Shown: one piece after another, positions 5,569 to 19,127 of the stretch | Numbering within the stretch: the first letter of the stretch is position 1 | Layout: every line of letters starts with the position of its first letter | Source: Candidatus Marinacidobacterales bacterium | GTDB lineage: Bacteria > Acidobacteriota > Vicinamibacteria > Marinacidobacterales > DATDRI01 | Length of the DNA stretch: 64,000 bases | NCBI GenBank assembly: GCA_965226495.1 | Contig: OZ245365.1 | Span: 1,280,001 to 1,344,000 of the forward strand | Direction of reading: 5' to 3' | The notes under the pieces: model-generated | Databases searched by the model: none | What the model was told of the DNA's origin: nothing | The model's input: only the letters and a program-made list of their open reading frames with translations | Made by a program: the position numbers and the translations under genes

Positions 5569-6063
5569 ATGCTGCTATCCGATACTCTGACCGCAGAGTT
5601 TGCCTTCGAGTCTGAAACGACGAAGAAGCTGATGGACCGGCTTCCCGAAGACAAGCTCTCTTGGACGCCCCACCAGAAGTCGATGACGCTCAGTCGGCTC
5701 GCGACCCACATTGCTCAGATCCCCGAATGGGGGGAGACCATCGTGCAGCACGAGAGCTTCGACATGGCCAGCGTCGATTACAAACCCCTCGAGCTCGGGA
5801 GTCGACAAGAGGTTTTAGATCTTCTCCAGAAGAACCTGGCGCAGTTTGCGGAGATCGTGAAGGGGAAGGACGACTCGTTGATGCTCGCGAAGTGGCAGCT
5901 CAAGCACGGCGACCATGTTGCCGTCGACGTACCGCGCATCGCGGCGCTTCGAGGTTTCGTTCTGAACCACACCATCCACCATCGCGGACAGCTATCGGTT
6001 TACCTCCGCCTGAACGACGTCCCCCTTCCTGCCATGTACGGGCCTTCCGCCGACGAATCCTAA
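5569..6063 (+). CDS. DinB family protein
   Basis: WTPHQKSMTLSRLATHIA and NHTIHHRGQLSVYLR; AAGGAG RBS. Confidence 0.9.
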   Translation: MLLSDTLTAEFAFESETTKKLMDRLPEDKLSWTPHQKSMTLSRLATHIAQIPEWGETIVQHESFDMASVDYKPLELGSRQEVLDLLQKNLAQFAEIVKGKDDSLMLAKWQLKHGDHVAVDVPRIAALRGFVLNHTIHHRGQLSVYLRLNDVPLPAMYGPSADES

Positions 6064-7277
6064 TTCATGGGCGGTCCGACTGCGACAATAGGCTCGTTAG
6101 GCCGGAAATGCAGAGGGAACTTGGTCACCGGTCGCATGGGGTCCTTCAAGTCCACCAAGTAAGGAGCACGGTCCTTCTCTTTGACATCCCCGAGTTCGAA
6201 AACCACGGTGGAGGCGGCTAGGGCGGAGCCATCGGGTGAGGCCGCAATTCGCGTGCCATAAGGATGAGGCCAATCATCGAACTTCCCCGACATCCGCGCG
6301 ACCGTGGTAAGCCGTGGTGGGGCAGTGCCCATCGGTATTTCGGCGATAGAGAACATCATCCTGTCCCCTCGGAAGATCCAGAAGCCCGAAGATTTGGCGG
6401 GACTGAATACCGCCGCATAGAGGGTCTCGCCATCCGGCGACCAATCGAGATGTCCCAATACGTACTGTTCGACAGGGAGCTTCGGCACCAAGGTCTCTTG
6501 GAGTCCGGCCTCTGAGAAGATAAGGATGAGCGCCCCTGTCGGCCCGCCGCCGGCGACGGCCATTCGCTCCCCATTTCGATAGGGCGCCATGAAAGGGGAG
6601 AGCTCGTCGATCCCATGTTCCTCTAGTTCTCTCTTGGTCAGCTCGAAGAGTGGCAAGAGAGTGAGGTCCTCCAAATTCAGTTTTCCGAATTCTTCAGCCC
6701 GGAATACGCGTTTGCTCTTTGGATCGCTCGTCGGCTCGAATCGTGTTGCCCGGTAATAGACGGTGTCGCCAGCGTCGTAAAGCATGACGGTTTCCTCGGT
6801 TTCGCCGGACGTCACTTCGCCAGTGCGGAGATCGACTTTGTTCAGCGTTTCGCCGCCGAAGTAAAGGCTCCCTGCGATTTCCGGAATCGGTGATGCCGTT
6901 GCTATCGTAGCCGCGCCGCGCGGGAGCTCGATCCTCTCGCGCGGTTCAGGAGAGTTGAGAGGTAGTAGTAGTATCCCGCTCGTTGACAACACGATCACCC
7001 GCTCGCCGCCCGCCTCCCATTGTGCATCGATGACGCCCGCATCTTCGTCGGGTTCGGACACTAGAAAGATAGAACGCGTCGCTCCGCTGGCGCGATCCAA
7101 CAGCACGACACCAGACTCCTTCGCCGTCGGGTCGTAATAGGAGTAGAGCAGCTTAGAGCCGTCGGGACTCCACGAGGGTCGGGAGGGTAGGCAAGCGGAA
7201 ACGCACAGAATAAGTGCCAGAAGACTGACCACCGTGAATAATTCATTGCGATTTCCAATCTGATTGAGTCTTTCCAT
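6060..7277 (-). CDS. Lipoprotein with TolB/PD40-like beta-propeller repeats
   Basis: Lipobox VSAC; WSPDG/SPDG repeats; GGAGG RBS; has its own sigma54 promoter. Confidence 0.7.
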   Translation of the reverse strand: MERLNQIGNRNELFTVVSLLALILCVSACLPSRPSWSPDGSKLLYSYYDPTAKESGVVLLDRASGATRSIFLVSEPDEDAGVIDAQWEAGGERVIVLSTSGILLLPLNSPEPRERIELPRGAATIATASPIPEIAGSLYFGGETLNKVDLRTGEVTSGETEETVMLYDAGDTVYYRATRFEPTSDPKSKRVFRAEEFGKLNLEDLTLLPLFELTKRELEEHGIDELSPFMAPYRNGERMAVAGGGPTGALILIFSEAGLQETLVPKLPVEQYVLGHLDWSPDGETLYAAVFSPAKSSGFWIFRGDRMMFSIAEIPMGTAPPRLTTVARMSGKFDDWPHPYGTRIAASPDGSALAASTVVFELGDVKEKDRAPYLVDLKDPMRPVTKFPLHFRPNEPIVAVGPPMN

Positions 7278-7306
7278 CTTCTTCGCCTCCTCTAGACGGG
7301 AAGAAG

Positions 7307-7323
7307 AGCAAGGACGGTGCCAA
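7307..7323 (-). promoter_or_regulatory. sigma54 -24/-12 promoter of the propeller lipoprotein gene
   Basis: Minus strand reads TTGGCACCGTCCTTGCT, a full match to TGGCAC-N5-TTGC. Confidence 0.85.
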
Positions 7324-7376
7324 CGCGCAGAGACTCATCGGTGGCAACATACCGTGGACAGAACGCCTCGTATCGC

Positions 7377-7408
7377 TTCGGATATCGAAACGGTGTTCGT
7401 GTATCGAA
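7377..7408. promoter_or_regulatory. Tandem palindromic enhancer (UAS) pair TTCG-N5-CGAA
   Basis: TTCGGATATCGAA (7377-7389) and TTCGTGTATCGAA (7396-7408); 56 bp from the GG of the minus-strand sigma54 promoter. Confidence 0.75.
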
Positions 7409-7482
7409 ACACGCCCTAGCCTCACCAGCTCGCTAAGTCCTTGCTTCTAAACTGTCGATTCTGTTGAACTGTGTTTCCGCGA

Positions 7483-7498
7483 CGGCATGAATCTGGCA
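7483..7498 (+). promoter_or_regulatory. Weaker sigma54-like promoter upstream of the activator gene
   Basis: CGGCATGAATCTGGCA (GG-N10-GC), 76 bp from the UAS pair. Confidence 0.45.
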
Positions 7499-7589
7499 GT
7501 TCACCAAGCAGGTTCCACCATGGCGTACGAGGCTTCACACCGCTTCACTCGGTGGTTTTCTGGCTGTAACATAGCTGCAGAGGTACCTC

Positions 7590-9167
7590 GTGGACGATTG
7601 GTCCCCTGAGACAACGCTCGATCCGAACAGCCCGCTGTCAGAGACTGGGACAGGACCGTCGCATCGACTTCTTGCTATCTACGAAGTAGGCCGATTGCTG
7701 TTGGAGCAGCGCGAGCCGCGCCAAATCATACTGACGATTCACAAAGCCCTCGTCGACCACCTCAAGCCCGATCATGCGTGCGTCCTGAGCGTCGGCGGGA
7801 ACGGCTCTCTGCACGCGGTGACGGCGCACGACCTGGATCTCGACAAACCCGAGGACGCCTGGCCTATCAGCCGGACCGCTTTGCGGCAAGCTCAAGAGAC
7901 GGGCCTCGCGCTTCTTGCGAAAGACGTTCTGCAAGATCCACAGTTCGGCGGCTCTCAGAGCGTCCACAAGTTCAGTATTGGGTCGGTCCTGTGTGTTCCG
8001 CTGGGAAAGGACCCGGTGCGCGGTCTGATTTATGCCGACCGCCGCAACAAGCGCGATGCGTTCACCCGGGAAGACCTCGAGTTTCTCACCGCCATCTCGG
8101 TCTACACCGGCCTAGTGCTGGAGCGCGCCGAGGAGTATCTCCGAACTTCGGAGGCGCTCAAACGTAGGGACGAACGGCTGGAGCTACTCGAAAGGGAGAT
8201 TCTCCGTTATGAGATCGTGGGAAAGTCGCCTCGCCTACTAGAGTCGTATGACCACTTGCGTCGATTAGCAGGGGCCGGCGCGCGGGTTCTGCTTAGGGGA
8301 GAAACAGGCACTGGCAAGGAGCTCTTCGCCCGTGCCTACGCCGCCGCCACCGAGCGAGGGAAGCCTTACGTGCCAGTTCCCATCCCGGCCCTTGCCCCTA
8401 ATCTCGTCGAGTCGGAGCTCTTCGGGCACGTAAAAGGGGCTTTCACTGAGGCCTCTCGCGACAAAAAAGGTTATCTCGAGGTCGCGCACGGCGGGGTCTT
8501 GTTTTTGGACGAGATCGGCGATATCGAACCGGCGACCCAGGTGAAACTGCTTCGCTTTCTGGACTCCGGGGAGCTTCACCGGGTCGGAGACACCGACCCA
8601 CGACACGTCGACACGCTCGTTGTCTCGGCTACGAATCGCAATTTGGAAAAGCTCGTAGAAGAAGGACGTTTTCGTTCCGATCTCCTGGCGCGCCTGGGAC
8701 ACCCGATCGAGATCCCACCTTTGCGCGAGCGCACCGGGGACATCCCGATTTTGGTGAACCACTTCAATGAAGTTTACTGCCGGGGACCGAAGCGGAAGAC
8801 CTTTGCGCCGGAGAGTATGGAGCTGATGAAGCGTTACCCCTGGGAGTTCAACGTACGCCAGCTTCAGCAGGTCGTGGAGCATGTGGTGTGTCTCGTCGAT
8901 CGCGAGACCATACTCCCCGAAGACTTGCCCGATTTCGTCCGCCTCGGCGCGGAACTGCCAGGGCCCACCTCGGGTGGGCTCGGGAGCGGAGATCGCGGCT
9001 CTCGGCCCTTGAAAGACGTCATCGACGAGGCGGAACGCGCGCATATCACACAGACCCTCGAGCTCACCGGCGGCAATAAACGCAAAGCGATCAAGCTCCT
9101 CGGCATATCCTCGGAAACCTTTTATAATAGGCTCGAGGAGTTCGGCCTTCACAAGAAAAAGTCCTAA
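7590..9167 (+). CDS. sigma54-dependent transcriptional activator (GAF-AAA+-Fis HTH)
   Basis: GAF-type segments SVLCVPL, GLIYAD and FTREDLEFL; Walker A GETGTGKE; ESELFGHVKGAFTEA; Walker B FLDEIG; NVRQL; HTH GGNKRKAIKLLGIS. Confidence 0.93.
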   Translation: MDDWSPETTLDPNSPLSETGTGPSHRLLAIYEVGRLLLEQREPRQIILTIHKALVDHLKPDHACVLSVGGNGSLHAVTAHDLDLDKPEDAWPISRTALRQAQETGLALLAKDVLQDPQFGGSQSVHKFSIGSVLCVPLGKDPVRGLIYADRRNKRDAFTREDLEFLTAISVYTGLVLERAEEYLRTSEALKRRDERLELLEREILRYEIVGKSPRLLESYDHLRRLAGAGARVLLRGETGTGKELFARAYAAATERGKPYVPVPIPALAPNLVESELFGHVKGAFTEASRDKKGYLEVAHGGVLFLDEIGDIEPATQVKLLRFLDSGELHRVGDTDPRHVDTLVVSATNRNLEKLVEEGRFRSDLLARLGHPIEIPPLRERTGDIPILVNHFNEVYCRGPKRKTFAPESMELMKRYPWEFNVRQLQQVVEHVVCLVDRETILPEDLPDFVRLGAELPGPTSGGLGSGDRGSRPLKDVIDEAERAHITQTLELTGGNKRKAIKLLGISSETFYNRLEEFGLHKKKS

Positions 9168-10297
9168 CGCGGAACCGAGAGCCGCATCCGCGCGATGCCC
9201 CCAGCATGATCTGATGGCCATCGGCCCGATGACGTAAGATCCCTCACCTCCTCGCCCACCACGACTGCCTGGATGGGGCCGATTGGCGGACCATGTCCGT
9301 TGGCGGTGTTTCGGGCCCAAATCAGATCGATCCGCCGATTCAGTTGCGGCTCCGGATTGTCGAGTAGCTCGGCGTGACAACAGGTGTCGCCTGGCCTGGC
9401 CCGCCCTCTTTTCGCCGCCCATGCGTCGACGTAGCCCGCCCAGGCGAACTGCAGGTAAGGTGGCACGATGTCGTCGACAACCGGATCGTCTGGATCCGAG
9501 TTGAAGTCCCCGACGACGATCACTGGGTCGTCCGCTGCCGCCAGGATGCCGAGGAGTTCCTGCGCCTGTAGCGCCTGAAAAGCGAGGGCCGGTCCCTGAA
9601 AATCCACCTCCAAATGCGTGTTGACGAAGTGGTATTTCCGTCCACGAACCCACGCGTCGACCGACGTGAAACCCCGCAGGAACTCGAGCTCGGCTCCGGC
9701 TATGGAGACGGGAACGTTGAAAGTGTAGTTTTGCGACATGGCGTTCGCAGTCCCGACGTCTCCGCGAACGAGGATCACGTCCCGATCGGTCACTCGCCCA
9801 TCGAAGAACAGCGGAATCCCATTCGAATCGAATCCATCAAACCCAGGCAGCTCAACATCGACATTCTGAACGAGTGACGCGACGCGGTAATCCAAACCCC
9901 GACGGTCGAGAGCCGCGAGCAGGAGATCCAGATAGTCGAATTCAACATCCACCGCAGGGGTGGCGTTCAAATCACCCGGAAACTGCGTCCGGATCAAGAA
10001 GGCCTCCTGAAGTCCGATGAGCTCGGGCCTTTTTCTCGCGATCTCGTCCGCAATGGCCTCCATCCGCTCGGGTGGATTGCTCTGGCGTATGATTTTGAGG
10101 ATTTCGGCGACTTTAATAGAGAGATCGAACGGTGACTGCGCTTCCAGAACGCGGAAGACGTCGGCCCCAAAGTAGAGGTTGCGCGTCATCACTTTGACGC
10201 TTCCAGAACGGCGGTTCACGCCGTCGTGCCCCAGAACGAGCGGCGTCGTCAGAAGTACGAGAACAAAGGACATCCAGCGAGTCATTCTCCGTGTCAT
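9164..10297 (-). CDS. Secreted endonuclease/exonuclease/phosphatase (EEP) family protein
   Basis: VMTRNLY, IGLQE, NTHLE, GDFNS, RIDLIW and PSDH motifs. Signal peptide follows ATG 10297, which has an AAGGAG RBS (ORF is open to 10405). Confidence 0.88.
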   Translation of the reverse strand: MTRRMTRWMSFVLVLLTTPLVLGHDGVNRRSGSVKVMTRNLYFGADVFRVLEAQSPFDLSIKVAEILKIIRQSNPPERMEAIADEIARKRPELIGLQEAFLIRTQFPGDLNATPAVDVEFDYLDLLLAALDRRGLDYRVASLVQNVDVELPGFDGFDSNGIPLFFDGRVTDRDVILVRGDVGTANAMSQNYTFNVPVSIAGAELEFLRGFTSVDAWVRGRKYHFVNTHLEVDFQGPALAFQALQAQELLGILAAADDPVIVVGDFNSDPDDPVVDDIVPPYLQFAWAGYVDAWAAKRGRARPGDTCCHAELLDNPEPQLNRRIDLIWARNTANGHGPPIGPIQAVVVGEEVRDLTSSGRWPSDHAGGIARMRLSVPR

Positions 10298-10320
10298 TCG
10301 ATAGCTCCTTTCGCGCAGGT

Positions 10321-10410
10321 AGGGCATGGAGTCGAAGAATCCGTGACATCCACGGCTGTGGATTGGCAGCTGTCTCGACCCGCTAGGGGCATCCTTCGAC
10401 TCCATGCCTT
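10321..10410 (-). repeat. Long inverted repeat in the 5' leader of the EEP gene
   Basis: GGCATGGAGTCGAAG (10323-10337) and CTTCGACTCCATGCC (10394-10408): 15 bp perfect, 18/20 when extended. Confidence 0.8.
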
Positions 10411-10432
10411 TCTTTCCTGGCGTGCTAGGTAC

Positions 10433-10533
10433 AGCAAATGCGATGCCAACAGGGAGGCGTGAACCAGGCAGTGTTTATGCGCAGCTAGTGATACGGGAGT
10501 AGTTCAGATTTCGAACGCGTTTCGATTTACGGA
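10433..10533 (-). promoter_or_regulatory. sigma54 promoter plus UAS pair for the EEP gene
   Basis: Minus strand TTGGCATCGCATTTGCT (10433-10449). Plus-strand TTCAGATTTCGAA (10503-10515) and TTCGATTTACGGA (10521-10533), 56 bp from the GG. Confidence 0.8.
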
Positions 10534-10549
10534 GAGGTTCTACGCGGTC

Positions 10550-12697
10550 TCAAAAACGGAAGCGCAACTTTCCTACGATGAGCCTAGTGAGGATGTCGCC
10601 AAAGACGTGTTGTTGGATCTCTGAATTCATCAGATTGGTGATCTCTATGATGGTGCTCAGCTTCCCGTCCTCCCACCGGATTCCGAATCCGGCGTTGACG
10701 AGCGTGTAGGCGTCGCTAGGCCCGTGAAAGCGAGCGTCCAAGACGTCCTGCCAAAACGACCAAAACGCATCGTCGGCGAAGTTCACCGATACGTTGCCGA
10801 AGTATCGGCCATAGTTAAAGCTGAAGCCAGCGTTGAAACGGTGCGTCGGTGGCAGGTTGAGCTCGCTGAGATCGAATCCCGTCGGCTCCGGCTCGTCTTG
10901 CCACGAATAGTTCGCAAAAACGCCGAAGAATGGGTTGATGCTCGTATCAACGGAAAGCTCTATCCCCTTGTCCCGAACGCGCTCAAGATTCCGAAACGAG
11001 AGCTCGGCGGGAAGCCCCAAGCCGGCCCGGTCTAGCTCGTCCAAAACGCTCGGTGGCAGCGGCCAACCTGGGGGTGGGTTCGTGCTGTCGTAGGTGTCGG
11101 TTTGAGTGAATTGGATGATGTCGTCGATTTCGTTGATATAGAAGGCCGCGCTGACGATGGTGCGGCCCTCGATGACCCCGGTGTAACCGAGCTCATAAGA
11201 GGTAAGGGATTCCTCTCGTAGCGCTGCGTTTCCGACGGCGGCAACGGGAAAAACGAACGGATCCCCGGGGAGCGATGGGACGATCGATTCGAGGTCTACC
11301 GCGTCTAAGATGACCGTATCCAGAAAGTTGTTCACCAAGGATGGTGCGCGGAAGGCGCGGTTGAAGGAGATACGGAACGTTTGGTCCGGGTTGGGTTTCA
11401 CCATGAAACTGGTTCGTGGTGAAAAAACAACGTCTTCCAATACATCGAACTTATCGATACGTCCGCCCACCACCCAGCGAAAATGCTCGGAGAGGAAGAT
11501 CTCGTCTTGGATATAGAGCCCAACCTCGTCGCGGTTGTCCCTAACGGGTGCCAGGGAGATATCGAACCTGTTGTGACGCACGTTCCCCCCGTATGACAGC
11601 AAATGCTTGCCTCCGATTACATTCAAGTTTCCGAGCTCGATGTCGTAGGTCTGGTTCTTGAAAGTGAAATTGATGGGTTGGCCATCGGCGCCGATGGCAA
11701 GAAGCGCAGGTGCCTCGCTATCGGTGATGTTGGTGAAAAATCTCAGACTGAAATCGCCGCGCTGATACCGGACCGTTCCGTAGGCGAGAAAAGTCTCTGG
11801 CTTGATCGCGAAGGGACCGAGGCCGGAGTGAACGATTCCTCCGGTGCCCGCGTAGCCGCCCGCGAAGACGAACTTTTGCGGCCGGCTCAGATCTTGCCGA
11901 TCGCTAGGAAAGTCGTAATCGAAACGGACATCGAACTGGGGCTGCCTTGTCCCCTGGTTAGCGTACGGCGGATAGGGGGTTTGGAATTCGTTGGGAATCG
12001 TGCCGGTGGGGCGAGGGAGGGCGTGCTGGGCGTAGATCCCAGCCGAGATCTTGAATGCGAGCCGCTCGCTGACTGCCTGTCCATAGGTGCCATTCAAGGC
12101 GAACAGATTTCCGCTATCCTGCTCGTTCCCTTCGACAGAACGGTCGAACCCTCCGAAGTCGATCGCCAGGGTAGTACCCAACATTTCTCGAGGAGGCTTG
12201 GTGATGACGTTGACGACGCCAGTCATTGCGTTGGCTCCCCAAACTGCGGAAGCAGGCCCGCGGATGATTTCAATCTGTTTGATCTCGTCGGTGTTGATGG
12301 GAAGCAGGTCCCAGAAAACGAAACCAAAGAAATCCTGGTAGATGGTTCGTCCGTCGAGCAAGGCGAGCTGCGATGTGACGAGGGTCGAGGTCGAGGCGCG
12401 GCTCCTGAGATTGATGTCGCGAGCCGACATCTGAATCACGTTGAGGCCGGGGACGACGCGCAGGAGATCGCCGTAGTTTTGCGCCGGAGAGCTCTCAATG
12501 ACACGATAAGGCAAGACGCTCACGGTGGCGGGCGCATTGACGAGCTCCTCCTGAAGCTTGGAGACGCTCACCACGATCACTTCCTGGTAGGGGGGAAGGT
12601 CCTCCTTATCCTGTTCCTGGTCTTGTCCGTCCTCAGTGAGCGGAAAAGGAAGCGACAGGAAGGTGGCGAGCAGGGGGGTTACACACCAGACCAACAT
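10550..12697 (-). CDS. TonB-dependent outer-membrane receptor
   Basis: TonB-box-like EVIVVS; plug motif IKQIEIIRGPASAVWGANAMTGVVNVITK; FRAPS; C-terminal aromatic strand LRFRF. Confidence 0.93.
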   Translation of the reverse strand: MLVWCVTPLLATFLSLPFPLTEDGQDQEQDKEDLPPYQEVIVVSVSKLQEELVNAPATVSVLPYRVIESSPAQNYGDLLRVVPGLNVIQMSARDINLRSRASTSTLVTSQLALLDGRTIYQDFFGFVFWDLLPINTDEIKQIEIIRGPASAVWGANAMTGVVNVITKPPREMLGTTLAIDFGGFDRSVEGNEQDSGNLFALNGTYGQAVSERLAFKISAGIYAQHALPRPTGTIPNEFQTPYPPYANQGTRQPQFDVRFDYDFPSDRQDLSRPQKFVFAGGYAGTGGIVHSGLGPFAIKPETFLAYGTVRYQRGDFSLRFFTNITDSEAPALLAIGADGQPINFTFKNQTYDIELGNLNVIGGKHLLSYGGNVRHNRFDISLAPVRDNRDEVGLYIQDEIFLSEHFRWVVGGRIDKFDVLEDVVFSPRTSFMVKPNPDQTFRISFNRAFRAPSLVNNFLDTVILDAVDLESIVPSLPGDPFVFPVAAVGNAALREESLTSYELGYTGVIEGRTIVSAAFYINEIDDIIQFTQTDTYDSTNPPPGWPLPPSVLDELDRAGLGLPAELSFRNLERVRDKGIELSVDTSINPFFGVFANYSWQDEPEPTGFDLSELNLPPTHRFNAGFSFNYGRYFGNVSVNFADDAFWSFWQDVLDARFHGPSDAYTLVNAGFGIRWEDGKLSTIIEITNLMNSEIQQHVFGDILTRLIVGKLRFRF

Positions 12698-12924
12698 AGG
12701 CAGTTTTCGTTGCTACGGAAGCTACTCGGTCCCGGCCTCGGAGTCAATCCGGTGAAAAGGGAGAGTTTCCCGTCTGATAAGACGGTCGCTGCGCAACGCA
12801 AGACGCCGCAGCAGACCGCGGGGAAGGCCGTTTTTGACACCACGAAACGTCCCTACTATTCTCTAAGGTGGGCGGCACCTTGCACCCCAGTTAACATTCC
12901 AACCTCTGCCTTCTGGGAGATTTG

Positions 12925-14607
12925 ATGTCCGGCAATGAGGAGCTTGCACTCGGCGACATCCTCGATGGCAAGTACATCATCGAGGAGCTCATCGGTCGGG
13001 GAGGTATGGGCGCTGTTTATCGTGCCCGGCACGTGGAGCTCGGTTCGCCGCGAGCCATCAAGATCATGCGCCGAGAGCTCGCCCAAGACGCTTCCTTCGT
13101 CCGGCGCTTTCGGAACGAGCCGCTCCTTGCCGAGGGAGTGCGACACCCGAACGTCGTGTCGGTCTACGACTTTTCTACTCTTGACGACGGCACCTCCTAC
13201 ATCGTCTGGGAGTACGTCGAGGGAAACACACTAGCGCAGCTTCTCACCAAGGGAAACGTCTTCACCAGTTCCGAAGTAGTGAATTTCGTCGAACAGGTGG
13301 CCGACGGACTGTCGGCAGTGCACGAAAAGGGCATCCTTCATCGAGACGTGTCGCCGGACAACATCATGATCTGCACCGATGCTAGAGGTAGCAGCAACGT
13401 CAAGCTTCTCGACTTCGGAGTGGCCAAAGGCGGAGGGATCCCTGGAGAAACTCCAGCCGATGCCAGCATGTTATTTGGCAAGATCGGCTATGCCTCCCCG
13501 GAGCAGATGGGTCTTCTCCAAGACGACGAGCTCCTCGACGGTCGTACCGACGTCTTCTCACTTGCCGCCGTCGCATATACGATGCTCACGGGTGAATCGC
13601 CGTTTCGCACCGCGAGTTTGCAAGTCTTCGTCCACGATCTGATCATCGCTCCAGAGTCAGAGATCAAGGCCCGTTATCTCGAGAGTTTGCCCGAACCCTG
13701 GCGGGCGCCGCTCTCACGAGCCTTGGCCCGCGACCGTGAGGCGCGACCAGCGACCACCAACGCGTTCGCCGAGGAGATAAAGAAGGCGGCGAAGGCAATG
13801 GGCTCGGAGGGGAGTAGCATCCAGCAACCGGAAGCGGGAGCACCGCGATGGCGGGGTGTGCTCTTCGCGTCGGCCGTTGCCGCAGCCATAGTCGCGATTG
13901 CGGTCGCGGTGACGACGACGACGCGCGACGTGATCCGAACTCCTGTGAAGATCGGTGAGCCTTCCGCAAAGGGGCGACAGGCTTTTCCTGACGAGACTGT
14001 TGGTCTCGCGGAGCCAGCCATCGCCGAGTTGCCACAGAGGGAAGAGGTTGCGACCGAACTCGCTCCGGAGCCTTCGCGTTCGGTTGTCGCGCCGATCGAG
14101 ACAGAGCCCTCCCGGGAAAGAGAGGACGCGCAAGCCGGCCCGGTGCAAATCGCTGTACCAATGGAGGACGAGAGAAACCGGGTAGAAGAAGCTGGAGTGG
14201 ACTCCACTCCCGGCGAGCCGCCCGCCGCGGAGCCGAAGCATCCCAACCCGATCGATGACAAGATGGCCGAGGGCCCGAGCGAGCGTCCTCAACCCCCCGC
14301 TCCGGCACCGCCGGGGCCGCAACCGAAGACGGCGACAACCGTGATACAGCCACGGCTTGTATTCCAGAAGGAGCCGGTCTACACAGACATGGCGAAGAGG
14401 CTCAGAATCCAGGGCGACGTCATCTTGAAGGCCATGATCACTTCACAGGGGAACGTCACGGATATCGAGGTCGTCCGTTCCCTTCCTCACCTGGATGGGG
14501 CGGCGATCGAGGCGGCTCGCCAATGGAAGTACGAGCCCGCCCTGAGGGACGGCGTCGCCGTGCCGTACAAGATGGATCTGAAGGTAACGTTCCGCTTCAC
14601 GCCCTGA
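12925..14607 (+). CDS. Ser/Thr protein kinase - TM - Pro-rich linker - TonB C-terminal domain fusion
   Basis: GRGGMGAVY, AIK, HRDVSPDN, DFG and GYASPEQ; TM VLFASAVAAAIVAIAVAV; C-terminal EPVYTDMAKRLRIQGDVILKAMI...LDGAAIEAARQWKYEPA. Confidence 0.9.
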   Translation: MSGNEELALGDILDGKYIIEELIGRGGMGAVYRARHVELGSPRAIKIMRRELAQDASFVRRFRNEPLLAEGVRHPNVVSVYDFSTLDDGTSYIVWEYVEGNTLAQLLTKGNVFTSSEVVNFVEQVADGLSAVHEKGILHRDVSPDNIMICTDARGSSNVKLLDFGVAKGGGIPGETPADASMLFGKIGYASPEQMGLLQDDELLDGRTDVFSLAAVAYTMLTGESPFRTASLQVFVHDLIIAPESEIKARYLESLPEPWRAPLSRALARDREARPATTNAFAEEIKKAAKAMGSEGSSIQQPEAGAPRWRGVLFASAVAAAIVAIAVAVTTTTRDVIRTPVKIGEPSAKGRQAFPDETVGLAEPAIAELPQREEVATELAPEPSRSVVAPIETEPSREREDAQAGPVQIAVPMEDERNRVEEAGVDSTPGEPPAAEPKHPNPIDDKMAEGPSERPQPPAPAPPGPQPKTATTVIQPRLVFQKEPVYTDMAKRLRIQGDVILKAMITSQGNVTDIEVVRSLPHLDGAAIEAARQWKYEPALRDGVAVPYKMDLKVTFRFTP

Positions 14608-14628
14608 CATCCTCTTTACCAAGAATAC

Positions 14629-14728
14629 CTCGAGAATCGAAACCCGTTCGGAGTTCGAAACGCATTTGTCCCACGAGCATTCCGAAGAGCCTTCTTTTTC
14701 GGCCTTTTCGATTGGCATCGAACTTGCT
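14629..14728 (+). promoter_or_regulatory. UAS pair plus sigma54 promoter
   Basis: CTCGAGAATCGAA (14629-14641), TTCGGAGTTCGAA (14647-14659) and TTGGCATCGAACTTGCT (14712-14728); 55 bp from UAS to GG. Confidence 0.82.
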
Positions 14729-14742
14729 CTTCGAGTCGATCC

Positions 14743-15015
14743 ATGAACGCACAGAACGTCTCCGTTGAAGTCACACGTCCCCGAGACCGACGTGGATTCT
14801 TGAACGCGAGGATGGTCCGAGGGCTTTCGTTCTTCACGGCGAGCATGTGCATTCTAGTTGCGGTGGTGGCGAGCCTTCTCGCCATATGGAAGTTCACAGG
14901 AACGGACGTGCTTTGGCGGACGGTAGCGACCTGCGCGGTGGTCGCGGGTGGCGCCATGACGTTTTCGTGGATTAATATTATCTTCGGGGATAATCCAACC
15001 GCCGATCCTTCCTAA
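14743..15015 (+). CDS. Small two-TM membrane protein of unknown function
   Basis: 90 aa with two hydrophobic helices; starts just after a sigma54 promoter. Confidence 0.65.
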   Translation: MNAQNVSVEVTRPRDRRGFLNARMVRGLSFFTASMCILVAVVASLLAIWKFTGTDVLWRTVATCAVVAGGAMTFSWINIIFGDNPTADPS

Positions 15016-15022
15016 CTTAGGT

Positions 15023-15123
15023 TTCGAAAATCGGAAACCGTTCGGAACTCGAAACGCGTTTCTGTCCGCTAGATGGGCTAACCGCCCTCTTTCTCAGCTT
15101 TCTAGAGTGGCATCGAACTTGCT
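15023..15123 (+). promoter_or_regulatory. UAS pair plus sigma54 promoter of the TRAP operon
   Basis: TTCGAAAATCGGA (15023-15035), TTCGGAACTCGAA (15041-15053) and GTGGCATCGAACTTGCT (15107-15123); 56 bp from UAS to GG. Confidence 0.82.
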
Positions 15124-15169
15124 AACTCGAGTCGTAGCCGCCCGCACAAGGCTGCAAAGGAGGGTTCCA

Positions 15170-16222
15170 ATGGCTTACGTGTTTCATTGCCGATCACTCC
15201 GCATCCTTTTGGTCTCCCTAGTTCTCATGGTCGCTGCCACCGGCTGCTCCATGAAGAAGTACGCGATCAACAAGGTCGGTGACAGTCTCGCTTCCGGCGG
15301 CTCGGTTTACGAGAGCGACGACGACCTCGAGCTGGTTGGTGACGCGTTCCCGTTCTCACTCAAGCTGGTGGAGAGCCTGCTGGCGGAGTCGCCGCGTCAT
15401 CGGGGATTGCTGCTCGCCGCTTCCAAAGGGTTTACATCCTACTCCTACATCTTCGTGCATGGCGAAGCCGATGTCGTCGCCGTGGAGGATCTAGCCAGGG
15501 CCACGGAGCTTCGCGCGCGGGCCCGAAATCTTTATCTACGAGCTTATCGCTACGGAATTCGTGGCCTCGAGCTTTCCTACCCGGGTATCGGTTTCGCACT
15601 CACGTCGGATCCCGAACTGCCGCCGGAGCCCTTCGTCGCGCGCGCGATGCGGGACCTTGAGCTTTCGGAGCTAGAAATCGATCAACTCCCTATTTTCCTC
15701 GATCCCGAACAGGCGGTCTCTCGCATCACCGATAAGAAGAACGTGCCCCTGCTCTATTGGACGGGGGCGGCGCTGGGGTTGGCGATCTCTGTCTCCCGCA
15801 ACGATCCCGCGATGCTTGCGCGCTTGCCTGAGGTCGACGCCCTCGTCGGACAGGCGATGCGGCTAGACGAGAGTTGGGACGAGGGAGCGCTCCACGAGTT
15901 CGAAGTGATCTTCGCACGCGCTAGGCCCGGGGCGTTGGATTTCGAAGGGATGGACGTCCACTTCCGCCGCGCCCTCGAGCTATCGAACGGGGCGCGCGCG
16001 GGCCTTTTCGTTTCTTACGCGGAGGCCGTGGCCATACCCAACCAGGATCGCTCTCAGTTCGAGACGCTTCTCGAAAGCGCATTCGCTATCGATCCCGACA
16101 AGCACAAGGACAATCGCTTAGTAAACCTCGTCGCTCAGCGACGAGCGCGCTGGCTGCTATCAAGGGTCGACGATCTGATTCTTCCCGTCGAATCGATGGG
16201 GTCGGAAGGAGAGAGCCAATGA
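15170..16222 (+). CDS. TRAP transporter TatT component (TPR-like lipoprotein)
   Basis: Lipobox AATGC; DDDLELVGDAFPFSLKLVESLL, VPLLYW and HFRRALELS; upstream of dctP/dctQM; AAGGAGG RBS before ATG 15170. Confidence 0.85.
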   Translation: MAYVFHCRSLRILLVSLVLMVAATGCSMKKYAINKVGDSLASGGSVYESDDDLELVGDAFPFSLKLVESLLAESPRHRGLLLAASKGFTSYSYIFVHGEADVVAVEDLARATELRARARNLYLRAYRYGIRGLELSYPGIGFALTSDPELPPEPFVARAMRDLELSELEIDQLPIFLDPEQAVSRITDKKNVPLLYWTGAALGLAISVSRNDPAMLARLPEVDALVGQAMRLDESWDEGALHEFEVIFARARPGALDFEGMDVHFRRALELSNGARAGLFVSYAEAVAIPNQDRSQFETLLESAFAIDPDKHKDNRLVNLVAQRRARWLLSRVDDLILPVESMGSEGESQ

Positions 16223-17283
16223 GGTACTCCATGTATGCGGTTCGAGCACTGGTTTGTCTAGTCCTACTTGGGTCGGCCCGGCCGGCTCTTTCCCAAAAAA
16301 TACGTATCAATTTGGGGACGGTGGCACCCGAGGGATCGATCTGGCACGAGATCCTTCTCGACGTGCGCCAGCAATGGGAGCAAATCTCCGGAGGCGAAGT
16401 CACGCTCCGTATCTATCCTAGCGGCATTCAGGGTGACGAAAGCGAGATGCTTCGAAAGGTTCGTATCGGCCAGCTCCACGCGGTCGCACTTTCTGGTGCG
16501 GGGCTTTCTCGCATCGACTCGAGTGTCTCTTGCCTTCAGGTCCCAATGCTCATCGAAACCTACGAAGAGCTCGACTACGTGGTCGAACGAGTGACGCCCA
16601 CGCTGGAAACGAAGCTTGCCGAGAAAGGCTTCGTCGTTTTGCATTGGGGCGACGTTGGGTGGGTGCACTTTTTCACCAAGAAGCCGGCGAGGACGCTCGA
16701 CGACATCCGTGAGATGAAGCTCTTCACCTCTGCCGGTGATCCGGAGACAGAGAAGCTCTACAAGGAGTTCGGCTTCCGACCGATTCCGCTCGCCCTGACC
16801 GATCTTCTCCCAGCGCTGCAAACCGGCATGATCGACGCAATAGACGTGCCTCCGCTGTTCGCGCTGCTCCAGCAGACGTTCGCTCTTGCGAGCCACATGA
16901 CGCCGGTGAAATGGGCTCCGCTGACCGCGGCGACCGTGATAAGCGAGAGGGCGTGGCAGGGAATACCGGCCGCGTGGCGTGAAGAGATGATCCTGGCTGC
17001 GCGCGCCGCCGCCGAGAAACGGCGCGACGAGATTCGGCGAATGGGTGAACGTGCCATCGACGAGATGCAAAGGAGGGGTTTGAAGGTCGTCGAGCTCGAT
17101 GAGGCGGCGCTCGTTTCCTGGCATCGGGAAGCCGAGCAGGCTTATCCCCGTCTCCGCGGAACGATGGTTCCGGAAGACCTCTTCGACCAAGTGACGCGCC
17201 TCAGCAGTGAGTTCAAAAAACGGCGGGGGACGGCCGATCAGGTCAACGGAGTGGAACGCGATCCGGCGCGTACGCGGCCATGA
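16219..17283 (+). CDS. dctP: TRAP transporter substrate-binding protein (DctP/TatP)
   Basis: LGTVAPEGSIW, GDESEMLRKVRIGQL, ALQTGMIDA. Confidence 0.88.
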   Translation: MRYSMYAVRALVCLVLLGSARPALSQKIRINLGTVAPEGSIWHEILLDVRQQWEQISGGEVTLRIYPSGIQGDESEMLRKVRIGQLHAVALSGAGLSRIDSSVSCLQVPMLIETYEELDYVVERVTPTLETKLAEKGFVVLHWGDVGWVHFFTKKPARTLDDIREMKLFTSAGDPETEKLYKEFGFRPIPLALTDLLPALQTGMIDAIDVPPLFALLQQTFALASHMTPVKWAPLTAATVISERAWQGIPAAWREEMILAARAAAEKRRDEIRRMGERAIDEMQRRGLKVVELDEAALVSWHREAEQAYPRLRGTMVPEDLFDQVTRLSSEFKKRRGTADQVNGVERDPARTRP

Positions 17284-19127
17284 GTGGTGTGCAAGCTACC
17301 GTAGTCCCTATCTGCGGGGAAACGACGTTACCGAAAGTACGCGCTTTCCGAATCGAAGACTCTCTATCGATCGGCGTACTGGCTCTGATGGTATTGATTC
17401 CCCTCATTGAGGTGGCGGGTCGTGAGCTCGCGGGGAGAGGTTTGCCGGGAGCCATCCCGATTGTCCAGCATCTGACGCTTTGGATTGCGTTTCTAGGAGC
17501 GGGGCTTGCGGCCCGCTCCGATCGGCTCCTCGCTCTTTCGACGGCGGACGTCCTCCCCCAACGCTGGCGCCGGCCGGTTCGGATCTTTACTTCGGCGGTC
17601 GGTGTCGCGGTGTCGGCGTCTCTTCTCTTGGCAAGCCTCGATCTCATTCGGGTCGAGCTGGCGGCGGGTGAGAGGGTAGCGTTCGGAGTACCGGTATGGT
17701 TCGCACTCGCCGTCATGCCCATCGGCTTCGCCTTGATCGCGGGCCGATTGATCTGGCACGCGTCCGATCGTGCATGGGGAAGAGTCCTGGTCGCGTCGGG
17801 GCTCTTGGTTCCCGCCGTCCTCGGGCAGTTTGCGGGTCTACAGGACGCGGGGCTGCTCGGTCCCGGAGTCTTGCTTCTACTCGTCGCGACGGCCCTGGGG
17901 CTTCCTATCTTTGCGGTTCTCGGAGGCGCGGCACTGCTCTTGTTTTGGACATCGGGAATTCCTGTGGCTGCGGTCCCGGTCGAGACCTATCGTTTGACCG
18001 CGCAGCCCATGTTGCCTGCGATTCCTCTATTTACGCTCGCGGGCTACTTACTCGCGGAGGGAGGTGCGAGTCGCCGGCTGCTTCGCAGTTTTACCGCCAT
18101 CGTCGGTTGGATGCCGGGAGGCCTCGCCATCGTGACCACTTTGGTTCTCGCATTCTTCACGCCTCTCACCGGTGCATCGGGGGTCACCATTCTTTCGATG
18201 GGAGGTCTCCTGCTGCCGATGCTAGTGAAGGCCCGGTATCCGGAGAAATCCTCGGTGGGTTTGGTTACGGTTTCTGGATCGATTGGTCTCCTCTTTGCAC
18301 CGAGTCTGCCCGTCATCCTATACGGCGTTTACTCGAATACGCCGATCGACGAGCTATTCATCGGTGGGTTGATGCCCGGGCTGTTGCTCGTGGTGCTGAT
18401 TGCTGGATGGGGTGCGAGCCGCGGCTTCCTTGCCGGGGCCCAACGGAGCTCCTTCGATAAACGCGAAGCTCTCGCGGCCCTGTGGGAGGCAAAGTGGGAG
18501 TTCCTTCTTCCTGTCGTCATCCTCGTGGGCATCTTCGGTGGGTTCGCTACGATTGTAGAAGCAGCCGCCCTTACCGTGCTCTACGCCTTCGTTGTGGAGT
18601 GCGTCGTCTACAAAGACATCCGGATCGGGCGCGATCTCGCTTCGATAGCCGTAGAGAGCGCTACCCTCGTTGGCGGGTTCCTCATCATTCTGGGTACGGC
18701 ACTCGGCTTCACCAACTATCTGATTCACGCCGAAGTACCGATCCGCGCGCTCCATTGGGTACAGACTTACATCGAATCACCGCTCGTCTTCTTGTTGACG
18801 CTCAACGTGTTTCTGCTCATCGTCGGAGCGCTGATGGACATCTATTCGGCGATCTTCGTTATTGTTCCGCTCATCGCTCCGATGGGGATCGCTTACGGCA
18901 TTCACCCGGTGCATCTCGGTATCGTCTTCCTCGCCAACATGGAGCTGGGCTACTTGATGCCGCCCATGGGAGAGAACCTGTTTCTTTCCTCTTATCGGTT
19001 CAAGCAGTCGCTCACTCGGGTCTATCTATCTACAGGCCCGTATGTTCTCATTTTGCTGGCGGCGGTCTTGCTGATTACTTATGTTCCCGCTTTCACCTTG
19101 TGGCCGCTCGAGCTGCTCGGACGGTGA
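17280..19127 (+). CDS. TRAP transporter fused small and large permease (DctQM)
   Basis: N-terminal DctQ-like TMs; AIPLFTLAG, TGASGVTI, GIHPVHLGIVFLANMELGYLMPPMG. Confidence 0.9.
   Translation: MSGVQATVVPICGETTLPKVRAFRIEDSLSIGVLALMVLIPLIEVAGRELAGRGLPGAIPIVQHLTLWIAFLGAGLAARSDRLLALSTADVLPQRWRRPVRIFTSAVGVAVSASLLLASLDLIRVELAAGERVAFGVPVWFALAVMPIGFALIAGRLIWHASDRAWGRVLVASGLLVPAVLGQFAGLQDAGLLGPGVLLLLVATALGLPIFAVLGGAALLLFWTSGIPVAAVPVETYRLTAQPMLPAIPLFTLAGYLLAEGGASRRLLRSFTAIVGWMPGGLAIVTTLVLAFFTPLTGASGVTILSMGGLLLPMLVKARYPEKSSVGLVTVSGSIGLLFAPSLPVILYGVYSNTPIDELFIGGLMPGLLLVVLIAGWGASRGFLAGAQRSSFDKREALAALWEAKWEFLLPVVILVGIFGGFATIVEAAALTVLYAFVVECVVYKDIRIGRDLASIAVESATLVGGFLIILGTALGFTNYLIHAEVPIRALHWVQTYIESPLVFLLTLNVFLLIVGALMDIYSAIFVIVPLIAPMGIAYGIHPVHLGIVFLANMELGYLMPPMGENLFLSSYRFKQSLTRVYLSTGPYVLILLAAVLLITYVPAFTLWPLELLGR

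Follow-up and report, generated by a model that had tools for sequence, protein, structure and literature searches.

In cell-surface signalling of the FecA-FecR-FecI type, a TonB-dependent receptor of the outer membrane acts together with a single-pass protein of the inner membrane, extending across the periplasm, and a transcription activator of its own; they control a small local regulon for uptake of the receptor's substrate. To our knowledge, every studied case of signalling by a TonB-dependent receptor relies on the combination of STN domain, anti-sigma factor and ECF sigma factor. The TonB of the ExbB-ExbD-TonB complex and dedicated paralogs such as HasB have a Pro-rich periplasmic linker and a C-terminal TonB_C domain; the N-terminal signal anchor of TonB carries a Ser/His coupling motif, SxxxH, and works with ExbB/ExbD. 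TonB_C is also fused to BlaR1-type M56 peptidases, a group of which we know no characterised member. Among the sigma-54 activators (bEBPs), those of the GAF type, such as NorR, NifA and FhlA, are regulated through their GAF domain. FecA-FecR-FecI-type signalling by TonB-dependent transducers is treated in PMC9249621 and PMC11637429. A literature search yielded nothing on a module like the one analysed here.

We studied a stretch of 64,000 nucleotides from a Candidatus Marinacidobacterales bacterium (contig OZ245365.1; hereafter the window), in which a TonB-dependent receptor, a Hanks-type kinase fused to TonB_C and a GAF-type sigma-54 activator constitute a real, conserved and narrowly distributed module. 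An original prediction had proposed that the kinase reads the receptor and signals to the activator, and Pfam searches recovered every gene it had named, in the place where it had put them. Signalling from receptor to kinase to activator, in a three-tier trans-envelope module, is our best reading of the locus, with a probability of about 45%. It looks as if the module reports binding at the cell surface in a manner not described before.

Genes of the module and their closest relatives

Table 1. Genes and candidate regulatory sites of the locus, in window coordinates
Feature	Position	Strand	Basis
PD40 (TolB-like beta-propeller repeat) protein gene	6060..7277	-	Pfam PD40 24 bits
Sigma-54 promoter of PD40 gene, TGGCACCGTCCTTGCT	7307..7322	-	0 mismatches to TGGCAC-N5-TTGC
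Predicted enhancer (UAS) between divergent PD40 and activator genes, ATCGCTTCGGATATCGAAACGGTGTTCGTGTATCGAAAC	7371..7413	.	motif words
GAF-AAA+-HTH_8 sigma-54 activator (bEBP) gene	7590..9167	+	Pfam; Sigma54_activat 180.6 bits
Endonuclease/exonuclease/phosphatase-family (EEP) hydrolase gene	9164..10405	-	Pfam Exo_endo_phos 51.9 bits
Sigma-54 promoter of EEP gene, TGGCATCGCATTTGCT	10433..10448	-	motif match
Predicted enhancer, inverted repeat GATTTCGAACGCGTTTCGATTTA, 20 nt past receptor stop codon	10507..10529	.	sequence
TonB-dependent receptor gene, 715 aa	10550..12697	-	Pfam Plug 57.6 bits, barrel 122.1 bits
Sigma-70-like promoter candidate (TTGACA-17-TATTCT), receptor/kinase intergenic	12834..12862	+	10/12 matches, weak
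Hanks-type kinase-TM-linker-TonB_C gene	12922..14607	+	Pfam Pkinase 148 bits, TonB_C 73 bits
Predicted enhancer, ATCGAAACCCGTTCGGAGTTCGAAACGC	14636..14663	+	motif words
Sigma-54 promoter of small membrane protein gene, TGGCATCGAACTTGCT	14713..14728	+	motif match
Small membrane protein gene, 90 aa, two hydrophobic spans	14743..15015	+	translation
Predicted enhancer, GTTTCGAAAATCGGAAACCGTTCGGAACTCGAAACGCGTTTC	15021..15062	+	motif words
Sigma-54 promoter of TRAP operon, TGGCATCGAACTTGCT	15108..15123	+	identical to promoter at 14713
TPAT-type TRAP transporter operon	15170..19127	+	Pfam; NCBIfam TRAP_S1 280 bits (cut-off 50)
TAtT gene	to 16222	+	Pfam TAtT 250.7 bits
DctP gene	16219..17283	+	Pfam DctP 155.8 bits
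Fused DctQM gene	17280..19127	+	Pfam DctM 242.2, DctQ 63.5 bits

As predicted, the receptor gene is divergent from the gene of the kinase-TonB_C fusion, with the activator gene nearby (Table 1); Pfam confirmed the domains of the divergent pair and found GAF, Sigma54_activat and HTH_8 in the activator. The receptor consists of a signal peptide, a short acidic stretch, the TonB box EVIVVSVSKLQE (EVIVVSVS, residues 39-46, right behind the leader), a plug and a 22-strand-type barrel. Pfam gave just Plug (residues 53-161) and the barrel, in agreement with the earlier view that this receptor has no STN domain. In the PDB its sequence matched plugs only, those of CirA, PirA and BtuB, and its NCBIfam scores were all below cut-off. 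Receptors linked to the kinase, in the window and at all four linked loci, share the TonB-box signature EV[IV]VVSVS[KR]L; the aligned unlinked homologs have [ST][AG][ST] at the SVS position, typically ETVVV[ST]AS.

In the kinase fusion, the Pkinase domain (residues 19-283) is followed by a single hydrophobic span (about residues 310-333), a P/E-rich linker and TonB_C (residues 484-558), an arrangement that predicts a cytoplasmic kinase domain and a periplasmic TonB_C. The latter was recognized by both PF03544 (73 bits, cut-off 24.6) and TIGR01352 (56.7 bits, cut-off 27.1). The kinase domain (PF00069, 148 bits) has the Gly-rich loop, the VAIK Lys, the HRD Asp, DFG and the xPE of the activation loop, and G24-G29, K46, H139-D141, D163-G165 and E193 are invariant in five sequences. 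The catalytic-loop Lys of HRDxKxxN is replaced by Ser (HRDVSPDN here, HRD[VI]SPDN in all five orthologs); of the 93 kinase hits in this genome, 86 have KP at this position and just two have SP. The Ser variant is widespread in metagenomes, where more than 650 stretches match two search patterns and most of the matches listed carry Ser, and therefore need not mean a dead kinase.

The fusion resembles the PASTA kinases PknB and Stk1 in having a cytoplasmic Hanks kinase, a single transmembrane span and an extracytoplasmic ligand-binding domain, but its sensor is TonB_C, not PASTA, and it lacks their catalytic-loop Lys. Membership in PknB_PASTA_kin was rejected (226 bits against an NCBIfam cut-off of 450). 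Its TonB_C domain is nearest to two canonical TonBs of the genome (48% and 45% identity), one of which adjoins exbD genes, and more distant from the other kinase-TonB_C paralogs in the genome (30-37%). With TonB it shares the linker and TonB_C, and like that of HasB its gene adjoins one particular receptor. Where TonB has a short cytoplasmic tail, however, the fusion has a 300-residue kinase domain as its N-terminus, and the SxxxH motif is absent because the single transmembrane span has no His. The window contains no exbB or exbD, and exbD genes are found at 4.78 and 2.42 Mb. In its N-terminal kinase, the lack of a transmembrane His and the remote exbD genes, the fusion departs from a TonB energy transducer.

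Peptidase_M56 was present in 32 of 73 long TonB_C representatives, so that TonB_C is repeatedly found on transducers as a periplasmic module. None of the 73, a set biased towards multi-repeat proteins, has a kinase domain. The M56 fusions and the kinase fusion are both membrane signal-transducer scaffolds with a periplasmic TonB_C, whereas the output of the former is a metalloprotease sensor and most of them have two to four TonB_C repeats.

The activator has Walker A and B motifs (GETGTGKE, VLFLDE), the AAA+ sigma-54 interaction domain (PF00158, 180.6 bits) and a DNA-binding HTH_8 domain; -24/-12 promoters with upstream enhancers at the locus, and the presence of rpoN in the genome, identify it as a sigma-54 bEBP. 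It has the GAF, AAA+, HTH_8 order of NifA, NorR and FhlA and, like them, enhancers about 50-110 nt upstream of -24/-12 promoters, but differs in its GAFTEA loop (GAFTGA in the others; GAFTEA is invariant in 5/5 orthologs), in an extra conserved N-terminal peptide and in its linkage to a Hanks kinase. All NCBIfam matches fell far short of the equivalog cut-offs, and the activator was rejected as an equivalog of NifA (271.2 against 528.85) or NorR (236.5 against 476). In alignments, the N-terminal peptide reads E-x-T-[LI]-D-P, and no single Thr or Ser of this motif is invariant.

The PD40 protein starts with a hydrophobic, lipobox-like leader, and its gene, with a promoter directly upstream, is a predicted sigma-54-dependent target. 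So is the EEP gene, whose product is predicted from a signal-anchor-like stretch to be secreted or periplasmic; an EEP ortholog occupies the same position in genome G010. The 90-residue membrane protein matched no known family; its orthologs adjoin the module in G010 and G030 and an activator homolog in G018 (tblastn, 63-65% identity). The transporter combines a TAtT T-component with DctP and DctQ/DctM, as in TPAT-type TRAP systems (NCBIfam dctM 322.6 bits, cut-off 268.45). The ORF start of TAtT at 15107 overlaps the promoter of this gene, and translation more probably begins at 15170, with an ATG in the same frame. Among the scanned ORFs of window positions 1-36000, there was no match to anti-sigma or ECF sigma factors, whose absence had been predicted, nor to the FHA and PP2C families.

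Like FecA-FecR-FecI, the module pairs a receptor that has a TonB box with an inner-membrane regulator spanning the periplasm, in five of five genomes, and has a dedicated transcription activator with a small local regulon, predicted to serve uptake of the receptor's substrate. In contrast, the receptor has no STN domain, the scan of positions 1-36000 found neither a FecR-type anti-sigma nor an ECF sigma factor, a Hanks kinase forms the cytoplasmic output, with a sigma-54 bEBP as transcription factor, and the receptor gene is outside the regulon. Since the periplasmic reader is a TonB_C domain, contact is presumed to be made through the TonB box and not through a signalling domain.

Sigma-54 promoters and enhancers

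As the original prediction had described, four local transcription units share one architecture. It consists of TGGCA-N6-TTGC behind a TCGAAAC/CGTTCGG enhancer; the repeats are located 45-110 nt upstream of each promoter, and the PD40 promoter is followed by AGGAGG and the ATG at 7277. The position of the EEP promoter is also occupied in G010 (L034, 6936-6951). Strict sigma-54-like sites occur 55 times in the 6.34 Mb genome, and only three of them, all local, have at least two enhancer words upstream; by this count the EEP promoter has one. The combination of enhancer and sigma-54 promoter at the locus is therefore beyond chance, and it is found nowhere else in the genome. The genome contains CCGTTCGGNNNTCGAAAC exactly twice, and both copies are at the locus. 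A fifth perfect -24/-12 match, inside the PD40 ORF (6244-6258, minus strand), has no TCGAAAC/CGTTCGG repeats just upstream.

The receptor and kinase genes have no such sigma-54 promoter. Between them is a sigma-70-like candidate (Table 1), and sites of this kind were not more numerous in the region than in shuffles. In three other genomes the enhancer is found at the junction of kinase and activator genes (G022 and G024 with no mismatch, G030 with one), with two to four hits in total per genome, and the activator gene itself follows such a sigma-54 promoter in sister genomes.

Conservation of the unit and competing explanations

The original prediction stood to fall if orthologs of kinase, receptor and activator were unlinked in other genomes; a survey found them linked elsewhere as well. 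Kinase orthologs are present in five of 54 other genomes of the order (four at E<=1e-70 and a split copy in G008), in none of a phylum-wide sample of 400 other genomes (three had hits at E<=1e-65 in frames of 935-1211 aa, which were not counted as orthologs) and at none of 78 metagenome loci. In all five genomes a receptor ortholog is the divergent neighbour of the kinase. The activator adjoins the pair in four of the five, in two gene orders and amid unrelated flanking genes, and therefore points to selection on the unit, not to inherited collinearity; in three genomes its gene comes directly after that of the kinase, and the enhancer is situated at their junction. Conservation of the unit extends across genera. 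Of 80 loci with receptor homologs, just four have the kinase, those of the closest receptors (tblastn, 59-64% identity over the longest aligned segment); among the 76 that lack it, L072 has 63% identity over a segment of just 199 aa. The kinase occurs exactly where its receptor clade does and is missing wherever that clade is missing.

About 53 kb of DNA with an integrase interrupts the kinase gene of G008, where the receptor has a frameshift and no activator was found at E<=1e-90; judging from these sequences, the three genes appear to have decayed jointly. All three are intact only in G000, G030 and G024. The TonB_C part is out of frame in G010 and the receptor is frameshifted in G022, breaks that may be long-read sequencing errors. 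Because the orthologs are linked and the enhancer and sigma-54 promoter are conserved, it is well supported that kinase, receptor and activator are a functional unit. This genome has about 93 kinase-domain hits, 10 Plug-domain receptors and 26 sigma-54-activator family matches (20 at E<=1e-46), and none of its three other kinase-TonB_C fusions has a receptor within about 9 kb, so that functionally unconnected genes might have become neighbours by chance. This is very improbable and already contradicted by linkage kept across genera, gene orders and flanks, by the matching phyletic pattern and by the conserved enhancer.

The linkage of the kinase to the receptor (5/5) is tighter than to the activator (4/5), as would be the case if the fusion acted on the receptor, gating or positioning it as a tether or as a competitor of TonB that is not energised, and the kinase had targets other than the activator. 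The closeness of its TonB_C to canonical TonB and the lack of local exbB/exbD are compatible with such a role, and in a genome so rich in kinases many other substrates are possible. We nevertheless find it improbable, given the adjacency of the activator in four of five genomes, its apparent loss together with kinase and receptor in G008 and the conserved enhancer at the kinase-activator junction.

Activator homologs with 58-63% identity and the same N-terminal peptide exist without this kinase; the one in G018 has kept its TRAP and small-ORF neighbours, with only a 105-aa receptor remnant beside it, and there is no kinase in the vicinity of those at L207 and L210. It may thus be that the activator can do without the kinase. 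All three proteins could belong to a common substrate pathway, in which a small molecule, such as the imported ligand or its product, switches the activator by binding to the activator's own GAF domain, as in NorR, NifA and FhlA; the kinase would do no more than modulate, and TonB_C would have another role. The position of kinase and receptor genes outside the sigma-54 regulon would fit this explanation. We regard it as rather unlikely; it does not account for the common phyletic pattern of kinase and receptor and their constant divergent arrangement, for the three genomes with the activator directly behind the kinase and an enhancer in the junction, or for the other Hanks kinases that directly adjoin activator homologs at L205 (a PEGA kinase), L206 (a TPR kinase) and L204.

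Proposed signalling and its meaning

For the receptor-to-kinase-to-activator signalling that we favour, we infer that the TonB box is captured, that the kinase is activated, that the activator is phosphorylated and that the signal flows in this direction. Receptor and kinase would be made from ordinary, non-sigma-54 promoters. Ligand binding would free the TonB box of the receptor into the periplasm, where the TonB_C of the kinase would capture it by strand pairing, as TonB would, without energy from ExbB/ExbD. Capture might alter the oligomeric or conformational state of the kinase, and the cytoplasmic Hanks domain would then act on the GAF-type activator, most likely by Ser/Thr phosphorylation of its N-terminal peptide or GAF domain. 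From the shared TCGAAAC/CGTTCGG enhancers, the activator would fire the four local sigma-54 promoters, yielding a secreted EEP hydrolase, a PD40 propeller protein, a small membrane protein and a TPAT-TRAP importer in the inner membrane.

The observed part of this model, namely the architectures, the conserved linkage with receptor and activator and the common, conserved enhancer and promoters, supports signalling, together with the phyletic pattern and the joint decay in G008. Further support comes from the origin of TonB_C, the TonB-box signature, the other kinases beside activator homologs and rpoN. Phosphorylation of the activator on Thr is weakened by the homologs without the kinase, the lack of an invariant Thr and the missing catalytic-loop Lys, and the full model by these homologs, by the missing Lys and by the three paralogous fusions without a receptor neighbour. 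It also counts against the full model that all three genes are intact in only three genomes, that a small molecule could be sensed by the GAF domain alone, and that the receptor has retained a canonical TonB box, on which real TonB must act as well. It is possible, and we propose it tentatively, that a TonB_C uncoupled from ExbB/ExbD serves a eukaryote-like Hanks kinase as sensor of TonB-box exposure on one dedicated receptor and drives a sigma-54 bEBP by Ser/Thr phosphorylation.

If this is true, receptor occupancy would lead to Ser/Thr phosphorylation and to transcription by sigma-54 with no STN domain, anti-sigma or ECF sigma factor involved, and the TonB box itself would be readable as a signal. 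TonB_C domains on proteins other than TonB, kinases here and M56 sensors elsewhere, would be occupancy sensors, and Hanks kinases could feed sigma-54 activators. The parts are small, and reconstitution in a heterologous host is possible. Acidobacteriota are rich in kinases and sigma-54 activators, and their signalling is almost unstudied; a domain architecture that recurs among them would gain a testable function.

A kinase–TonB_C fusion beside a receptor and a sigma-54 activator

Pfam scans recovered all the genes named by the original prediction (see table). The TonB-dependent receptor matched only Plug and barrel domains, in keeping with the claim that its N-terminus is too short for an STN domain, and it is encoded divergently from the Hanks kinase, with 224 bp between the genes. 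In the translation of the kinase gene, a single hydrophobic span (about residues 310–333) is followed by a Pro/Glu-rich linker of roughly 150 residues, which places the kinase domain in the cytoplasm and TonB_C in the periplasm; Pfam and translation agree here with the arrangement originally described. Among the ORFs scanned in positions 1–36000 of the window, none matched an ECF sigma, anti-sigma, FHA or PP2C family, so that the reported absence of an anti-sigma or ECF gene holds for this region.

Features of the module, its local regulon and related loci
Feature	Location	Strand	Remarks
Activator	window 7590–9167	+	Pfam: GAF, AAA+, HTH_8; sigma-54 activator
TonB-dependent receptor	window 10550–12697	−	715 aa; Pfam: Plug and barrel, no STN
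Kinase–TonB_C fusion	window 12922–14607	+	561 aa; Pfam: Hanks kinase domain, residues 19–283, 148 bits; TonB_C, 484–558, 73 bits
Sigma-54 promoter	window 7307–7322	−	for PD40-repeat protein (6060–7277)
Sigma-54 promoter	window 10433–10448	−	for secreted EEP-family hydrolase (9164–10405)
Sigma-54 promoter	window 14713–14728	+	for 90-aa two-span membrane protein
Sigma-54 promoter	window 15108–15123	+	for TAtT-DctP-DctQM (TPAT-type TRAP) operon, to 19127
TPR protein ending in TonB_C/TonB_2	window 19737–21560	−
VWA-domain protein	window 21771–22724
VWA-domain protein	window 22738–23682
Paralogous kinase–TonB_C fusion	L001 9210–11507	−
Paralogous kinase–TonB_C fusion	L002 8963–10828	−
Paralogous kinase–TonB_C fusion	L003 about 9111–11027	−
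Hanks kinase with FGE-sulfatase-type domain	L211 4963–7998	−	1011 aa
CarboxypepD_reg-Plug-barrel receptor	L211 8385–10853	+	822 aa

The mature receptor begins with a short run of acidic residues, after which comes EVIVVSVSKLQE, and the Plug domain begins at residue 53 of the translation. Receptors with the kinase as neighbour (the window and all four linked loci) have EV[IV]VVSVS[KR]L in common; in the unlinked homologs that were aligned, the SVS position reads [ST][AG][ST], usually within ETVVV[ST]AS. This difference in the TonB box could be a co-adaptation or merely a clade signal.

In an alignment of kinase orthologs the Gly-rich loop, K46 and the HRD, DFG and xPE motifs are all retained, and the catalytic loop reads HRD[VI]SPDN in five of five sequences. 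The SP at this position occurs in only 2 of the 93 kinase hits of the window genome. More than 650 stretches were matched in a metagenome scan whose patterns were this loop and another peptide, and most of the matches listed contain the loop. Judged by its sequence, the loop appears to mark a widespread kinase subfamily and not an obvious pseudokinase.

The activator has GAFTEA in place of GAFTGA, as have its orthologs (5/5), and scores far under every NCBIfam equivalog cut-off. The peptide E-x-T-[LI]-D-P-x-x-P/A-L at its N-terminus is kept throughout the clade; the Thr moves between two neighbouring positions, so that no single residue of the peptide is invariant.

Four flanking transcription units had been proposed to share one enhancer/sigma-54 architecture, which our matches bear out: four promoters fit TGGCA[CT]-N5-[CT]TGC, and the same enhancer, built from TCGAAAC/CGTTCGG repeats, lies 45–110 nt upstream of each, most clearly as ATCGAAAC-CCGTTCGG-AGT-TCGAAACGC. 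The 6.34 Mb genome, which encodes rpoN, contains 55 strict sigma-54-like sites, only three of which have at least two enhancer words upstream, all at the module locus; CCGTTCGGNNNTCGAAAC occurs twice genome-wide, both times at this locus. No sigma-54 promoter of this type precedes the receptor gene or the kinase gene; a sigma-70-like site ahead of the kinase gene (12834–12862) is weak evidence. A fifth perfect −24/−12 match (TGGCAC-N5-TTGC, 6244–6258, minus strand) was treated as chance: it falls within the PD40 ORF, 184 nt from the stop codon, faces a convergent DinB-family gene and has none of the TCGAAAC/CGTTCGG repeats just upstream. The EEP protein, of the endonuclease/exonuclease/phosphatase family, had no match in a PDB sequence search.

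Distribution and linkage of the module

Of the 54 further genomes in the order, only 5 have a kinase ortholog, four at E<=1e-70 (G010, G022, G024, G030) and the fifth as a split copy in G008, all within one sister family. The family to which the window belongs has none in its seven other genomes, the unpublished G007 counted among them, and none was found among 400 further genomes sampled across the phylum in a stricter first look; three genomes of this sample had matches at E<=1e-65, all to differently built kinases in frames of 935–1211 aa. A metagenome scan with the kinase alignment gave 78 loci, all with paralog-level kinases (29–43% identical) and none with a receptor neighbour, and thus no new module members. 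DNA near-identical to positions 9100–15200 of the window (at least 72% of sampled words) is present in 20 public runs from seven studies, none of them on record as RNA, so the organism recurs across samples.

In all five genomes, the divergent neighbour of the kinase is a receptor ortholog (59–65% identity). Among 80 receptor-homolog loci drawn from 185,579 species genomes, the kinase is present in 4 only and absent from the other 76. These four hold the closest receptors by tblastn, with 59–64% identity over the longest aligned segment; the receptor of L072, a locus without the kinase, is 63% identical, but over a 199-aa segment only. These relatives are recorded under Vicinamibacteria, Vicinamibacterales or 'Candidatus Marinacidobacterales', names that all fall within Acidobacteriota. 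The neighbourhoods of homologs at about 56% identity (L046, L047, L050) are unrelated (RelA/SpoT, 2-oxoacid oxidoreductase, IS66) and do not point to a ligand. As a side observation, a receptor homolog of 44–47% identity recurs with equal match length, mostly 2151 bp, in many genomes (L086, L093–L102, L104, L109, L111, L112, L115, L117–L120) and repeatedly within assemblies, for example on five contigs of one and at two places in one chromosome; this locus may be duplicated or mobile.

An activator ortholog (63–72% identity) is adjacent in four of the five genomes, in two arrangements: activator(+) EEP(−) receptor(−) kinase(+) in the window and G010, and activator(−) kinase(−) receptor(+) in G030, G024 and G022. 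The genes flanking the module differ and are unrelated between loci, so that the conserved entity is the unit itself, not a larger syntenic block. The linkage that the original prediction presumed is thus found in other genomes, and it is strict for this kinase orthologous group. That the genes are chance neighbours is contradicted by this synteny, and we regard it as highly improbable.

All three genes are intact in the window genome, G030 and G024. Elsewhere kinase and TonB_C are in different frames (G010), the receptor lies in two frames (G022, G008), the activator has no match at E<=1e-90 (G008), and about 53 kb, including an integrase and a ParB-methylase, interrupt the kinase (L037 9810–10427 and L038 9419–10534, on G008:C2). 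Since several assemblies are long-read, some of these frame shifts may be errors. The G008 insert, with its phage-type integrase, looks like an integrative element that has the kinase gene as target.

The control elements are also found in the relatives. G010 has promoter and enhancer ahead of the EEP gene, like the window. From the stop codon of the kinase to the start of the activator, G022 has room for both a sigma-54 promoter and an enhancer, the latter with 0 mismatches to the 15-base core. G024 (0 mismatches) and G030 (1 mismatch) have the enhancer immediately behind the kinase gene, and a sigma-54 promoter about 240 nt downstream of it. In G030 the promoter is followed by a short reading frame (about 68 aa; L035 about 8175–7970, minus strand), which has a ribosome-binding site of its own and encodes a hydrophobic leader, and then by the activator; the promoter of G024 (L039) is identical and in the same position. 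The enhancer at up to one mismatch has only two to four matches in total per genome (G022, G024, G030). That an enhancer and a sigma-54 promoter stand ahead of the activator gene implies autoactivation in the sister family. One-mismatch matches outside the modules, in five genomes, were judged to be background because none lies beside homologs of regulon genes. Linkage, architecture and enhancers of the module are direct observations.

Activator homologs of 58–63% identity occur in nine sister-family genomes, eight without a kinase ortholog plus G022, where a second copy stands beside TAtT and a transposon-broken TRAP gene. The homolog in G018 adjoins a 105-aa remnant of the module's receptor, the TRAP genes (68–71% identity) and the ORF for the small membrane protein, with no kinase. 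Three homologs are near different Hanks kinases (G038, divergent from a PEGA kinase; G036, convergent with a TPR kinase; G034, about 0.8 kb away), and two have no kinase nearby. The activator clade extends beyond the genomes that have this kinase, and the activator can evidently persist without it. This would fit an activator that a ligand switches via the GAF domain, the kinase serving as modulator, an explanation that we consider possible, if rather unlikely. The recurrence of this clade beside Hanks kinases with different sensor domains is suggestive of a link between them, and only suggestive, because the genomes are kinase-rich and mutually related.

Relation to other fusions and known systems

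The window genome contains about 93 kinase-domain hits, 26 sigma-54-activator-family matches (20 at E<=1e-46), 10 Plug receptors and 18 TonB_C matches, four of these in kinase fusions. None of the three paralogous fusions has a receptor within about 9 kb; in two of them PEGA domains separate the TM span from TonB_C, and one of the three adjoins an FHA-RDD protein. Kinase–TonB_C fusions in general are therefore not bound to receptors: a receptor neighbour is found in this orthologous group (5/5) and in none of the paralogs (0/3). The same genome has a second divergent kinase/receptor pair (L211, G000:C1:3231000-3246000), so that 2 of its 10 Plug receptors are divergent neighbours of kinases. 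The TPR–TonB_C gene of the window adjoins two VWA genes, an arrangement resembling a Bat-type aerotolerance cluster.

The TonB_C domain of the fusion is closest to the two canonical TonBs of the genome (48% and 45%), with 30–37% to the other kinase fusions. One canonical tonB adjoins two exbD genes at 4.78 Mb; there is no exbD near the window. The fusion shares TonB_C with TonB but is not a TonB: it begins with a kinase domain, its TM span lacks His, and ExbBD is not encoded nearby. In outline, the module is like FecA-FecR-FecI cell-surface signalling, but it lacks the two defining features that were tested, an STN domain and an anti-sigma/ECF pair. M56/BlaR1–TonB_C fusions are an architectural analogue: in the long TonB_C representatives scanned, a set dominated by multi-repeat proteins, Peptidase_M56 was found in 32 of 73 and a kinase in none. 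An exhaustive protein search with the TonB_C part gave 51253 matches, the top ones mostly multi-repeat TonB_C proteins, and a word-indexed search only four proteins. The best-scoring relatives (P0011–P0160, from a library of 1.84 billion proteins) have two to six tandem TonB_C domains, many fused to BlaR1-type M56.

A candidate signalling route

Ligand binding frees the TonB box, as established for BtuB, FhuA and FecA. In the module, a ligand on the receptor would free the box, which the TonB_C domain of the kinase would capture without energy coupling; the kinase would then signal to the activator, and this would fire the four local promoters for hydrolase, propeller protein, small membrane protein and inner-membrane importer. 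We infer the binding of TonB_C to the box, the phosphorylation and the direction of flow. A predicted complex of the mature receptor (22–715) and the TonB_C part (468–560), each given as an alignment, had a score of 0.16 and a mark of 0.32. Alternatively, the kinase–TonB_C protein might act on the receptor or on other substrates, which we judge improbable. The whole route from receptor through kinase and activator to regulon seems the most likely mechanism, with a probability of about 0.45.

Our literature search, with subscription journals outside its scope, found no paper on kinase–TonB_C fusions, on such wiring or on Hanks kinases driving GAF-type bEBPs. Taken together, the sequence comparisons confirm the original observation and partly support its interpretation: the module is real, conserved and narrow in distribution, and the route proposed for its signalling is plausible and apparently undescribed.
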